A DNA stretch of 16,304 nucleotides. Source: a virus. Position 1 is the stretch's first letter; each line of letters begins with the position of its first letter. The translations under genes were made by a program, and so were the position numbers. Under the pieces are notes generated by a model. It was given only the letters and a program-made list of their open reading frames with translations, was not told the origin of the DNA and searched no databases. Below, piece after piece: positions 12,163-14,959 of the stretch. Location: UHGV virus genome UHGV-0193351. The stretch is one strand, 5' to 3'.

Positions 12163-12909
12163 TTACTTCGCAATTCCTGGCTGGACGACATTCGTACGCC
12201 AGCTCTCCCAGTTAAAATTCACCCAGCGTCCGCCGTTCATGGTCATGCGATCCATAATCCGCTCGCCGAGCAATGTTTTCATGGCCTCATAGTTCAGGTT
12301 TGTCAGCATTCCCACGCTGCGCATCGACGCTGTCCGGCGATCAACAATCTGGTGCAGTACCACCTGCTCGTTTTTCGTCTCGCGCTGAATGCCAATTTCA
12401 TCAAGAACCAGCAGATCCACTTCGCACAGTTCCCGCAAAAATTTTTCGCCTGACTGCCCGTCGTCATAGCTGGCATACAGGACACTCATAACATCAGCCA
12501 CGGTAACCACAATCACTGTCTGACCGTCTTTCAGCAGGCGATTCCCGATAGCTGCCGCTAAATGGTTCTTCCCGGTACCAGGTTTTCCGCTGAACGCAAA
12601 ATTTGTACACCCGGTCATCAGTTCATCGGCGATGGATTTCGCCTGGCTTAACGCGTATCGCTGGCCGTCGTTCTGCACCTGGTAATTCGCAAATGAACAT
12701 TTGCGGTGCAACGGCTGGATGCCAGAGCGATTCAGGATTTTTTTCACCCGCAACTGACGATTCAGGCGGTTGATCTCCTCGCAACGTTTCTGGCCTTCAG
12801 CAAGTTGCCACTCGCGCCACTCCGCAACCGTTCTGAATGGGGCGGTTACATGTGGTGGGGTCAGTCTGCGGATACGCTCCAGAACGCCTCCTGTCGCAAT
12901 ATTTTTCAT
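12163..12909 (-). CDS. DnaC-like replication protein (helicase loader, IstB-like AAA+ ATPase)
   Basis: 248 aa, colinear with E. coli DnaC: Walker [19 protein letters not shown], Walker [19 protein letters not shown] and C-terminal NFNWESWR. Equivalent to ydaV-type genes of Rac-like prophages. Confidence 0.9.
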
Positions 12910-12915
12910 GGTCTG

Positions 12916-13704
12916 TTACCCCCTGAAGCCTGGCGGGATCGCACTGTCCGGCAACGAGACGGTGTTAACCTGTCGGAGCAACGTCTCAGGCCGAACACCT
13001 TTCGGCGCGAACAGGCCCTGGTATTCATTGGCGATGCTGTGTCGAATCACCTGCTCAGGTGTAAACCCCTGCTGACGGAATTTTTCCAGTTCCCGTATCG
13101 CCCCGTTAGCGCCCTGCTCCGTTCGAATCGGTTTTCGCAATGCCTGTCTGAACCGGACCCACTCATGCCAGAGTGTTTCCGGCAACCAATCGGGCAGCTC
13201 AATAGCCTCCGGCTCGAACTTTTTAGACGCTCGTTTTTGCCGAGGGGGATTTAGGGGGAGATCAGTATTTATATCTTCCTCTTCCTCTTCCTCTGGTAAC
13301 GCTTTTTGATCCGTTTGTGTAACGCTGTCAGCGTTACCTTTTCGTTTCAGTTCGCGTATTTTTGTTACTCGCTCGTTTGTAACCGCCCGTTTTTTAGAGC
13401 TTTTTCCGTTATGACGTTCAAAGTTAGGTAGAGAAAGCCCACCGTCATTTTCGACCAGCCATCCAACCTGAATTAACGCATCAGCAAAACCAGCCATAAA
13501 AGTAATGCGATCTATTGCACTTTTTGTAACGCCGCGAGCGTTACAATCTGCGTTACCGTCTATCATTTGTTGATCCGCCCATGCCCAGAAGCGAATAACC
13601 TTCCCTAATGCGGCATCTGGATCAATATTCAGAATCTCAGCAAGCCTGAATATTTCCGGCTTATCCGGCGTAATAACCTCGAGCTTTATCCAGTTTGAAG
13701 CCAT
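12916..13704 (-). CDS. phage replication initiator (O-like / YdaU-type, DUF1376-like)
   Basis: 262-aa ORF immediately upstream of the DnaC-like gene, with an acidic linker (EEEEEED) between two domains and palindromic repeats inside and upstream of the gene. Family not verified. Confidence 0.6.
   Translation of the reverse strand: MASNWIKLEVITPDKPEIFRLAEILNIDPDAALGKVIRFWAWADQQMIDGNADCNARGVTKSAIDRITFMAGFADALIQVGWLVENDGGLSLPNFERHNGKSSKKRAVTNERVTKIRELKRKGNADSVTQTDQKALPEEEEEEDINTDLPLNPPRQKRASKKFEPEAIELPDWLPETLWHEWVRFRQALRKPIRTEQGANGAIRELEKFRQQGFTPEQVIRHSIANEYQGLFAPKGVRPETLLRQVNTVSLPDSAIPPGFRG
13319..13337. repeat. palindrome GTAACGC-TGTCA-GCGTTAC (copy 1 of 3) inside the replication initiator gene
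   Basis: Perfect dyad symmetry read directly; an extra half-site GGTAACGCT lies at about 13296-13304. Confidence 0.6.
13525..13545. repeat. palindrome TGTAACGC-CGCGA-GCGTTACA (copy 2 of 3)
   Basis: Perfect 8-5-8 palindrome; an extra half-site GCGTTAC lies about 5 nt downstream. Confidence 0.6.
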
Positions 13705-13716
13705 TTGTTTTCACCT

Positions 13717-13737
13717 TGTAACGCTCGCAGCGTTACA
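13717..13737. repeat. palindrome TGTAACGC-TCGCA-GCGTTACA (copy 3 of 3), 13 nt upstream of the replication gene start
   Basis: Perfect 8-5-8 palindrome in the 77-bp intergenic region, next to the AAGGTG Shine-Dalgarno of the replication gene. Confidence 0.6.
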
Positions 13738-13781
13738 TTTAACTGATACCGAACAAAACAGTCCGGCACGATTAATTTCAA

Positions 13782-14204
13782 TCAATGCACTACGACAGAA
13801 TCGCCGGGCGATCCTCCGCCGCTGAAATGTGCTTTCCGGTAAACGGCCTGGACTGCATCATCATGCGCATCAATTGCCGTACTCAACGCTTCCTGCGCCG
13901 CCAGTAATGCACGGCGTTCCAGGGTATCGAAGATGCAGAGTCGGTGACGCAGCTCGCGCGGAAGAATTGCCAGAACCGCAGGGATCAGTTTCTGAATTTT
14001 TTCCCTTTGCGCTTTCGTTTCACCTTTCAACCAACGGTGATAGATATTCTGCTGATTGTTCCAGTCCTTGCCTGGTACCAGGGGCAATTCGCCGCCCCCC
14101 TGGCGCAGATATTCTTCAGTAATTGCGTTAGCGACCCACGCCTGCCCTTTTTCGGCTGCCAGGGCTAACAACACTGATTCGATGTGCTCATGCCTGATTT
14201 TCAT
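13782..14204 (-). CDS. YdaT-like protein (proposed CII-equivalent regulator of Rac/CP-933P-type prophages)
   Basis: 140-aa ORF directly downstream of, and overlapping by 4 nt, the Cro-like gene, the arrangement of ydaS-ydaT in Rac-type prophages. Size fits. Assignment is positional and from memory. Confidence 0.5.
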   Translation of the reverse strand: MKIRHEHIESVLLALAAEKGQAWVANAITEEYLRQGGGELPLVPGKDWNNQQNIYHRWLKGETKAQREKIQKLIPAVLAILPRELRHRLCIFDTLERRALLAAQEALSTAIDAHDDAVQAVYRKAHFSGGGSPGDSVVVH

Positions 14205-14443
14205 GAATCAACCGCTCCTATGCTGTTTTCGCTATGCTTACCGTCTGGGGGGAATACATCGTCAAGTCCACAATGAGCGCCAAGCCGATTAAGGGTAGAA
14301 ACAATTTTTCTGCACTCCTCTAGCCCAGGGGTACGAAAATTTGCTTCGTAATTTGCCAGTCGGCTTTGTATCCACCCTAACTGAACAGCAAGTTGTCTTT
14401 GAGACAGCCCAAGCTGTTTTCGATATGTTGAAATTTTGTTCAT
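14201..14443 (-). CDS. Cro-like XRE-family HTH regulator (early rightward operon, first gene)
   Basis: 80 aa with HTH (RKQLGLSQRQLAVQLGWIQSRLANYE), transcribed divergently from the CI-type repressor gene. ATG at 14441-14443. Confidence 0.75.
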   Translation of the reverse strand: MNKISTYRKQLGLSQRQLAVQLGWIQSRLANYEANFRTPGLEECRKIVSTLNRLGAHCGLDDVFPPDGKHSENSIGAVDS

Positions 14444-14539
14444 TGAAAACCTCCGATGACAATTTTAAACACATCTTGTGTTATATGGTCAAGCTGTTTT
14501 GTGTTTTATGTAAATCACGATTCGTGATACAAGGATGCA
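14444..14539. promoter_or_regulatory. immunity-switch intergenic region with divergent promoters and candidate operators
   Basis: 96-bp AT-rich spacer between divergent HTH genes. Contains palindromes ACACA-TCT-TGTGT (about 14469-14481) and ATCACGA-T-TCGTGAT (about 14513-14527) and repeated TGTGTT motifs. Coordinates approximate. Confidence 0.5.
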
Positions 14540-14959
14540 ATGGAAAAAGAAAACGAAAAAATTGCCGCTAGTAGGCTCAATGACAAAATTGCAATGCGTC
14601 TTAAAGAGCGCAGGCAGAAGCTTGGTTTATCTCAAGGAAAACTTGCTGAAATCTGCGGATGGACGCAATCGCGTATAGGTAACTATGAGGCGGGCAGCAG
14701 AAATGTTGGAGTGCATGACGCTGTCGTATTGGGAAAGGCACTTGGCATATCTCCTCCTGAGCTCCTCTTTGGAGAACAGGAATCTTCTGAATTGTGGTTA
14801 AATGAATCCCAACGAAAACTTCTTGAGTTGTTTAACCAGCTACCGGGCTCAGAACAACAACGAATGATTGAGCTATTTGAAGTCCGGCTAAAAGAAATCG
14901 ATGAGTATGTAGAAAAATATTTGAGAGGCAGGCTTAAAGATAATCCCCCACCGGAGTAA
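14540..14959 (+). CDS. CI-type prophage repressor (DicA/RacR-like, XRE HTH plus C-terminal dimerisation helix)
   Basis: 139 aa; HTH (RRQKLGLSQGKLAEICGWTQSRIGNYEAG) and C-terminal LLELFNQLPGSEQQ segment resembling the DicA C-terminus (LLELFNALPESEQ). Divergent from the Cro-like gene. Confidence 0.8.
   Translation: MEKENEKIAASRLNDKIAMRLKERRQKLGLSQGKLAEICGWTQSRIGNYEAGSRNVGVHDAVVLGKALGISPPELLFGEQESSELWLNESQRKLLELFNQLPGSEQQRMIELFEVRLKEIDEYVEKYLRGRLKDNPPPE

Follow-up and report, generated by a model that had tools for sequence, protein, structure and literature searches.

The stretch of DNA analysed here (the window, 16,304 nucleotides of the virus genome UHGV-0193351) matches a Rac-like prophage of Escherichia coli strain C25 with 100% identity. 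It contains three perfect copies of the palindrome GTAACGC-N5-GCGTTAC within and just upstream of a replication initiator gene, and we argue that they probably belong to an origin of replication situated inside this gene. The gene occupies 12916..13704 on the minus strand and encodes a protein of 262 amino acids; this assignment, made in an initial annotation of the same DNA, was right. The three palindromes reported there are borne out at 13319-13337, 13526-13544 and 13718-13736. When the window was scanned for the consensus with at most two mismatches, the chance expectation was 0.02 matches, and none of 200 shuffled sequences reached four. The fourth match of the window (5438-5456, GTACCGCTTATTGCGTGAC) has two mismatches, is remote from the replication genes and is most likely due to chance. 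Because the initiator open reading frame is 12916-13704 on the minus strand, the copy at 13718-13736 lies 14-32 nt 5' of the ATG, and the other two fall into codons 54-60 and 123-129. The start-to-start distances between the copies are 207 and 192 bp.

The first copy in the direction of transcription, the leader palindrome (GTAACGC-TCGCA-GCGTTAC, 13718..13736), lies in the 77-bp leader between ydaT and the initiator gene, with 13 nt separating its end from the ATG. Site A (GTAACGC-CGCGA-GCGTTAC, 13526..13544) is read on the minus strand as C-N-A-R-G-V-T, and site B (GTAACGC-TGTCA-GCGTTAC, 13319..13337) as G-N-A-D-S-V-T. The arms of the leader palindrome and of site A are one base pair longer on each side (TGTAACGC...GCGTTACA, 13717-13737 and 13525-13545), whereas the outer arms of site B have 7 bp and lack this extension.

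Of the 15 occurrences of the heptamer GTAACGC in the window, 8 are inside 13296-13736, as compared with 1.3 expected for the whole window. The extra half-sites that had been noticed near 13296 and 13550 were confirmed: one occupies 13296-13302 on the plus strand, the other 13550-13556 on the minus strand. The latter is a direct repeat 12 bp, start to start, from site A and encodes the G-N-A of D-G-N-A-D; the former reads GCGTTAC on the gene strand, is translated A-L-P, and adjoins a polypurine tract. The search of the whole prophage proposed in the initial annotation found no additional palindrome in 29.6 kb of the identical prophage of E. coli C25, and half-sites outside the 440-bp stretch occur there at about the chance level. 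Thus the objection that the motif might be equally dense elsewhere fails.

Site B lies in the centre of a cluster. The order of elements on the gene strand is GAAACGA (13348-13342), site B (13337-13319), a decayed position (CGGATC, 13313-13308), the terminal half-site GCGTTAC (13302-13296), a single C, the polypurine tract AGAGGAAGAGGAAGAGGAAGA (13294-13274), the AT-rich stretch TATAAATACT (13273-13264), and C5-N5-C5 (13259-13245). GAAACGA, as read from the sequence, is a degenerate half-site on the minus strand, 11 bp start to start before site B. The 21-nt polypurine tract is of the (GAGGAA)3 type and encodes, also on the minus strand, an E-E-E-E-E-E linker; we propose it as a part of an unwinding element. 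The AT-rich stretch is the regional GC minimum, the GC fraction falling to a local minimum of 0.375 at 13260-13299. Beyond it, the C5-N5-C5 element (GGGGG-ATTTA-GGGGG on the plus strand) encodes P-L-N-P-P, is shared with the ydaU gene of the Rac prophage of E. coli K-12, and recalls the G/C-rich element beside the AT-rich region of phage lambda. Similar C-runs follow the tract in six related loci (L090, L091, L092, L102, L104, L119); in L102 and L104 they are followed by a G-run, so that a stem is possible. The polypurine and AT-rich tract is flanked by GATC (Dam) sites at 13260-13263 and 13307-13310. Such flanking GATC sites were seen in loci L085, L087, L090, L091 and L092, and AAAGATC stands directly after the AT-rich stretch in several relatives from Enterobacterales; Dam and SeqA may be involved at the origin.

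The segment 13264-13348 corresponds to codons 119-147, approximately, that is, to the end of the N-terminal domain of the initiator and a disordered linker. Judging by its composition and layout, it is rather likely to be the origin core. The initial annotation had set the palindromes against lambda-type origins, which lie inside the initiator gene and use tightly clustered iterons, and this contrast was a useful lead. The remark on the lack of clustered iterons is only partly correct, since site B sits in a cluster beside an AT-rich tract; it holds for site A and the leader palindrome. Likewise, the palindrome at site B stands as a dimer-type site, but not as a separate one, as it is the centre of a cluster of half-sites with a period of 11-12 bp. 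Upstream of it, a degenerate GTTAC/GTAAC pair was observed at 13362-13390 (gene strand GCGGTTAC-N10-GAGTAAC). It encodes the conserved peptide A-V-T-N-E-R-V-T and may be an extra weak site or mere coding conservation.

The array is seen better in the relatives. Alignment of 41 loci on site B, used for the profiles of the flanking array, of AT excess and of purines, demonstrated further half-sites spaced by 11-12 bp, direct on one side of site B and inverted on the other. Related loci have four to six good half-sites, whereas the window retains one perfect palindrome, one perfect half-site and two degenerate positions. An example is L128, where the array reads GGTAACGG-N4-GGTAACGC-N5-GTAACGG-N5-GCGTTAC-N5-GCGTTAG-N4-GCGTTACC. 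The positions that are degenerate in the window are occupied by good half-sites in relatives, e.g. GCGTTTC in L088 and L089. In the same 41 loci the last half-site adjoins a run of purines, 21 nt long in the median, and an ATATAAA-like sequence comes next; 30 to 45 bp downstream of the centre of site B, the averaged profiles reach their maxima, +0.13 to +0.19 for AT excess and 0.77-0.79 for the fraction of purines.

The initiator itself consists of three parts: a winged-helix-like N-terminal domain (residues 1 to about 125; the N-domain), a disordered acidic linker (residues 125-163) where the predicted local distance difference test (pLDDT) score is below 50, and a DnaT-like C-terminal domain (residues 170-262), which matches E. 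coli DnaT (2ru8, E 9.7e-5; 9zbt, E 3.3e-4). Relatives of the initiator carry the DnaT-like C-domain PF17948. The complete protein matches phrog_2509, 'replication initiation protein', over its full length (E 8.2e-90, residues 1-262 against profile positions 1-277), PHROG 2509 being an annotation category and not an experimentally characterised family; a PHROG-level 'O-like' match covers residues 77-236. No Pfam-A match was found for the 262-residue protein at E up to 0.01, neither Phage_rep_O nor DUF1376.

The N-domain (about 125 amino acids, window 13300-13704), for which there is no Pfam-A model, is a module joined to varied C-domains. Of the representative clusters at 50% identity, 6,921 match it with E up to 1e-3 and 4,370 with E up to 1e-10. 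The matches come from many phyla, and the domain is nearly always N-terminal in proteins of about 230-340 amino acids. It was found in phages epsilon15, SPN1S, TL-2011b and Xanthomonas CP2, and in phages of Ralstonia and Pseudomonas.

A single-protein search of viral contigs produced only relatives with 96-100% identity, which are uninformative. Therefore the conservation of the sites was analysed in 64 loci taken by an alignment-based scan from contigs with one genome per species; 62 were long enough to judge. They span Enterobacterales, Burkholderiales, Pseudomonas, Planctomycetota, Verrucomicrobiota and others, with the N-domain identity going down to 36%. With at most two mismatches, both intragenic sites are present in 47 of the 62 loci, only the first in six, only the second in two, and none in seven. 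Site A occurs at +136 to +160 in 53 loci, and site B at +323 to +412 in 49. If no more than one mismatch is allowed, these two ranges and -32 to -44, the position of the leader palindrome, are the only places with sites in the roughly 2 kb to each side. The leader palindrome is confined to Enterobacterales (seven loci, with zero or one mismatch, in E. coli, Shigella, Winslowiella, Serratia and Pantoea) and absent from the other loci scanned, although a few loci from Verrucomicrobiota have more degenerate upstream copies at -21 and -57, with two mismatches. The leader copy was added later. Some Enterobacterales have also gained extra half-site units of 12 bp, or four codons, at each location; in particular, a four-codon insertion carrying an extra half-site, as at 13550-13556, was seen in other loci of this order.

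The same specificity was observed in IMG/VR, which was scanned for two palindromes 170-200 bp apart. At least 120 contigs contain paired palindromes, and all 163 pairs among the matches listed overlap a homologue of the N-domain. The sites are thus position-specific and, in the collections scanned, exclusive to this family of initiator genes. The distance between them is another matter. Regular 200-bp spacing, suggested by the three copies in the window, is not a conserved rule: the distance from site A to site B varies from 189 to 264 bp (median 215), and its helical phasing is weak (R = 0.37). This makes a rigid, phase-locked loop between A and B unlikely, and as the loci are in addition phylogenetically non-independent, there is no support for a loop of fixed phase.

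The sites overlap coding sequence, and codon usage was counted in 56 diverged loci and the window, with the same genes as background. In the frame in which the palindromes are usually read, the pattern is xGT AAC GCN NNN NGC GTT ACN. The first codon ends with GT despite the varying residue (G, S, C or R): glycine is encoded by GGT in 47 of 53 cases (22% in the background), serine by AGT in 14 of 14 (13%), and cysteine by TGT in 9 of 9 (29%). The asparagine codon of the arm is AAC in 87 of 88 cases. The fifth codon has the form xGC with the residue varying among S, G, N, R and T; serine is AGC in all 48 cases against 21% in the background, and glycine is GGC in 22 of 24. The valine codon of the arm is GTT in 81 of 96 cases (28% in the background).

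The reading frame is not conserved either. In 15 of 47 loci site B is read in other frames, as the distance between A and B is not a multiple of three. The terminal half-site adjoins the polypurine tract in 30 of 37 loci scanned; in 25 it is in frame 0 and is read GCG TTA CC (A-L-P), and in five it is in frame 1 and is read xGC GTG ACC (V-T). Continued into the purine tract, the peptide is A-L-P-E-K-R-R in some lineages and V-T-R-E-E-K-R-R in others; the DNA that follows is identical (CCAGAGAAGAGAAGAGAAG) but gives P-E-K-R-R-E-E or T-R-E-E-K-R-R, depending on the locus. All 63 arginine codons within the tract are AGA, compared to 48 of 774 elsewhere in the same genes. The palindromes and the tract are almost certainly under selection at the DNA level, and given the codon fixation and the independence of frame, it is the DNA element that gives rise to the conserved peptide motifs and not the reverse. 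This is a case of overlapping codes, in which a cis-acting DNA element dictates peptide motifs (GNAxSVT, ALP, EEKRRE) and rare codons (AGA) in a protein-coding gene, and therefore conservation of the protein in these segments should not be taken as an indication of protein function.

The intragenic sites change in concert. In five lineages both of them, together with the flanking half-sites, bear one variant shared throughout the genome. In the group formed by Pseudomonas, Paraburkholderia and Caballeronia this is GTCACGC..GCGTGAC, which combines the replacement of asparagine by histidine in one arm with a synonymous change of GTT to GTG in the other. Further paired variants are GTTGCGC..GCGCAAC in L108, CTAACGC..GCGTTAG in L124 and GTTACGC..GCGTAAC in L105. 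Phage epsilon15, with an N-domain of only 34% identity, has GTCCGC-N7-GCGGAC twice, at +65 and +344. A shared variant in each genome fits sites read by one protein; independent hairpins need not match each other. No gene product other than the N-domain is found with the sites in every case, as the C-domains and the neighbouring genes differ between loci. Taken together, these sequence patterns make it quite likely that the initiator binds the palindromes, and agree with the initial annotation insofar as it saw them as putative dimer-type DNA sites tied to the initiator.

In the model that we propose, the palindromes are duplex DNA sites for the initiator encoded by the gene in which they reside and together form the origin of the Rac-like prophage inside this gene; we consider this likely. 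Firstly, dimers of the N-domain would occupy the palindromes, with further protomers on the half-sites. Secondly, the polypurine and AT-rich tract beside the array of site B would melt. Finally, the DnaT-like C-domain and the DnaC-like loader would recruit the host DnaB. Site A with its half-site at 13550-13556, which is conserved in the family as widely as the core, and the leader palindrome would be distal auxiliary sites for the same initiator. Their most likely roles would be participation in a larger looped or wrapped complex, blocking by the initiator of transcription that enters its own gene from a PR-like promoter, or both, but any specific role of the distal copies can be named only tentatively. 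Their positions may simply be the places where the protein tolerates the imposed peptide. Both site-encoded peptides fall into loop or linker segments modelled with low confidence, that of site A into a loop with pLDDT below 50 at residues 50-56.

Several observations weigh against this model. Some site pairs have identical spacers (L108, L087, L088), which suggests gene conversion, and this could inflate the apparent concerted evolution. When the columns of the N-domain alignment were compared with the site type, GTAACGC or GTCACGC, only the site-encoded asparagine or histidine followed it, the other candidates being broken by one locus, L107. The palindromes could fold as RNA or single-stranded DNA hairpins of -10 to -12 kcal/mol, and symmetric changes alone cannot separate a dimer site from a stem. 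The seven loci without a recognisable site at two mismatches, mostly from Verrucomicrobiota, have already been mentioned, and the helical phasing between A and B is not conserved. The literature yielded no binding, footprint or origin-activity data for this initiator family, and no published description of this origin or of the N-domain was found, subscription journals being outside the coverage.

One possibility is that the palindromes are operators only, at which the initiator or another phage repressor shuts off or roadblocks the operon of the initiator and the loader, the origin being elsewhere. Inverted repeats of the dimer type at the 5' end of a rep gene are classical autorepression sites of Rep proteins of iteron plasmids (RepE of F, RepA of pPS10), and the leader copy here is only 13 nt from the ATG. 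The DnaC-like helicase loader gene ydaV (12163..12909, minus strand) lies directly 3' of the initiator gene; its product matches NF009043 at 504 bits, and DnaC at 303 bits, under the 357-bit cutoff. Upstream are the YdaT/CII-like gene ydaT (13782-14204, minus strand), a Cro-like helix-turn-helix gene (14201-14443, minus strand) and a DicA-like repressor gene (14540-14959, plus strand). A promoter scan produced a PR-like candidate at about 14433-14462, from which the initiator and loader genes are probably transcribed, and this would place all three sites in the path of RNA polymerase. However, conservation in the whole family extends to the two intragenic sites but not to the leader copy, and the scan found no sigma-70-like promoter overlapping any of the palindromes. 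The array of half-sites with the polypurine and AT-rich tract, retained across reading frames, is typical of an origin and is unexplained by repression. We thus consider a purely regulatory role unlikely.

Another possibility, also raised initially for the copy that abuts the Shine-Dalgarno box, is that the palindromes are hairpins in the initiator mRNA that influence the start of translation, ribosome pausing or mRNA decay. Folded in isolation they are stable (z about -4), the leader copy ends 1 nt before the Shine-Dalgarno sequence AAGGTG, and the symmetric changes of the arms resemble compensatory ones. However, the pattern of variation is the reverse of that in most structured RNAs. The 95 distinct sites (190 arms) used for these statistics were collected by similarity to the consensus; in this sample arm positions 2-6 are 81-99% invariant (A at position 3 in 153 of 190 arms, the other four positions at 96-99%) and the spacer is variable. 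Among the arm pairs that are not Watson-Crick in these consensus-selected sites, only five are G-U, against 60 others. Half-sites in direct orientation, which cannot pair, are retained beside the palindromes, and the variants shared by all sites of one genome would be needless for independent hairpins. In the leader, the minimum-energy fold does not use the palindrome, the distance from the copy to the ATG varies by 12 nt (-32 to -44), and often the copy is absent. No match to Rfam was found for the sites. Gating of translation by an mRNA hairpin is therefore not favoured, and RNA structure as the explanation for the sites is very improbable.

Two other potential RNA structures were observed in this region. 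An 8-bp hairpin GCCGGACU-loop-GUUCGGU is predicted at 13747-13768 on the minus strand, in the leader between ydaT and the initiator gene and 5' of the leader palindrome; it is not an obvious terminator, since no U-run follows it. A terminator-like call at 13319-13337 was rejected, as it is on the antisense strand and is just the palindrome followed by T-rich coding sequence.

Similar considerations apply to hairpins in single-stranded DNA, for example signals for primosome assembly or priming that are exposed by unwinding and used together with the DnaT-like C-domain. This domain does resemble the single-stranded-DNA-binding domain of primosomal DnaT, and the palindromes would give stems of 8-9 bp. 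On the other hand, the palindromes also accompany C-domains that are not DnaT-like, the array of half-sites with its purine and AT-rich tract is left unexplained, and the invariant arms, the conserved isolated half-sites and the concerted variants again argue for recognition of duplex DNA. The chances of this explanation are as slim as those of the RNA hairpins.

Still less probable, to the point of being negligible, are operators for YdaT, which is CII-like, or for the Cro-like and repressor proteins of the immunity region. YdaT of Rac and CP-933P is known to protect (T/A)TGATT-N6-AATCAA and, being a tetramer, can bridge a pair of inverted repeats (PMC9986795, PMC11879457); the palindromes adjoin ydaT, and the initial annotation had considered a YdaT-like protein as the binder. 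However, the arms and the N5 spacing of the palindromes differ from the YdaT box, and a perfect box is found at 14195-14210, over the ydaT start, as published for Rac. Moreover, ydaT of K-12 Rac is 94% identical at the nucleotide level, yet this prophage has no GTAACGC palindrome even with three mismatches allowed. Finally, in other phyla there are phages and prophages in which the palindromes have different genes as neighbours. The published box and the comparison with K-12 led us to reject YdaT as the binder.

Two near-perfect copies of the YdaT box, each with one mismatch, were found as well. The box at 14502-14517 is in the repressor/cro intergenic region. The one at 13769-13784 overlaps the ydaT stop codon about 65 nt 5' of the initiator ATG, is absent from K-12 Rac, and might enable YdaT to affect read-through into the replication genes.

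Lastly, the palindromes could be a by-product, with no function in the DNA, of the repeated peptide G-N-A-x-S-V-T, which the family indeed keeps twice (of 143 distant representatives, 126 contain it at the first and 106 at the second position), but this can be practically dismissed, as synonymous positions are fixed far above the background, xGT and xGC are kept while the amino acids vary, a non-coding copy exists in the leader, site B and the terminal half-site are in different frames in different loci, and the peptides map to loop or linker segments of low confidence.

The locus can be compared directly with that of K-12 Rac, where YdaU occupies the same slot with the same partners, ydaT upstream and ydaV downstream. 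The nucleotide identity to the window is 92-94% over ydaV, the C-terminal half of ydaU and ydaT; for the C-terminal half of ydaU with the AT-rich and the G/C-rich elements it is 92%. The block 13278-13783, which includes the leader, the N-domain and all three palindromes, is replaced in K-12 and has no nucleotide similarity to K-12 ydaU. The N-domain of YdaU is of the DUF1376 type, and instead of the palindromes the gene has direct repeats. Five exact copies of TTSAACAYC (0.18 expected) were found in Rac of K-12 MG1655 (L001), all within ydaU, at 1931-1984, 2135-2143 and 2220-2228: three are clustered by the AT-rich linker region, and two are in the part coding for the N-domain. These are probably the iterons of oriJ. 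A leader site is absent in K-12, as only 12 bp separate ydaT and ydaU. By analogy, the central cluster with two distal copies in ydaU hints that the layout of core and distal sites may be functional in the window too.

One may go further and suggest that this large family of initiators shares a single ancient origin cassette at the nucleotide level across phyla, with the sites written into the DNA that encodes a loop and a linker of the DNA-binding domain. The distal site about 200 bp away would then be obligatory, as a part of a bipartite looped or wrapped complex that couples the synthesis of the initiator to the occupancy of the origin, and the similar layout in DUF1376-type YdaU of K-12 would make this a general design principle. 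At present we regard this generalisation as speculative and somewhat doubtful.

The sites provide a concrete origin candidate for a widespread class of prophages and phages, among them Rac-like prophages of E. coli and Shigella, including those of O157, phage epsilon15, TL-2011b-like phages, and phages of Xanthomonas, Ralstonia and Pseudomonas. A DNA-binding domain that has no Pfam model, paired with its probable recognition sequence, should help to annotate origins and to predict incompatibility of replicons and mosaic exchange. With the distal sites, the part that remote initiator sites play in origin firing or autoregulation could be studied in a small natural system. Palindromes of a different kind, AATTACC-N5-GGTAATT, were observed around the replication genes of epsilon15 (L147; +726 and +788) and TL-2011b (L148; -1385 and +1670). 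As one of them coincides with an annotated repressor-binding site, these are immunity operators unrelated to the initiator sites.

Among known systems, the closest in overall plan is phage lambda, where the binding sites and the AT-rich tract of ori are inside the O gene, next to the loader gene P (PMC7466680). As in lambda O, the proposed origin is within the initiator gene, in the DNA coding for the linker between the DNA-binding and the recruiting domains. Dyad-symmetric sites of about 19 bp stand beside an AT-rich tract, and a helicase-loader gene follows (PMC7466680). In both systems the binding sites and the N-domain are swapped jointly as a specificity cassette. The details differ. The initiator has no Pfam match and is not a Phage_rep_O protein, its C-domain is DnaT-like, and its partner is a DnaC-like loader and not P. 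The core consists of head-to-head 7-bp half-sites with a period of 11-12 bp, whereas lambda has four tandem iterons. A conserved polypurine repeat is the proposed unwinding tract, and two more perfect palindromes are situated upstream, at distances of about 200 and 400 bp, in the DNA coding for the DNA-binding domain and in the leader.

An origin within the rep gene is also found for plasmid initiators of the RepA_N group (pSK41 RepA, PDB 4pta). However, there is no sequence relationship to them, the repeats and the layout are different, and the replicon here is a phage and not a plasmid. Iteron plasmids autoregulate their Rep proteins through inverted repeats that Rep dimers bind; these repeats of the origin half-site stand, as here, at the start of the rep gene. 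Unlike the situation with F RepE and pPS10 RepA, no promoter overlaps the sites in the window, and the best-conserved distal site is intragenic. In phage P4 (ori and crr) and in the gamma-ori of R6K with its distant pi-binding sites, the initiator recognises one sequence both at the origin and at a second element in cis, with looping as the presumed means of communication between them. Site A and the leader site would find their closest parallel in these systems, with the difference that P4 and R6K span kilobases as opposed to about 200 bp here, and that here the remote sites are inside the coding sequence of the initiator itself.

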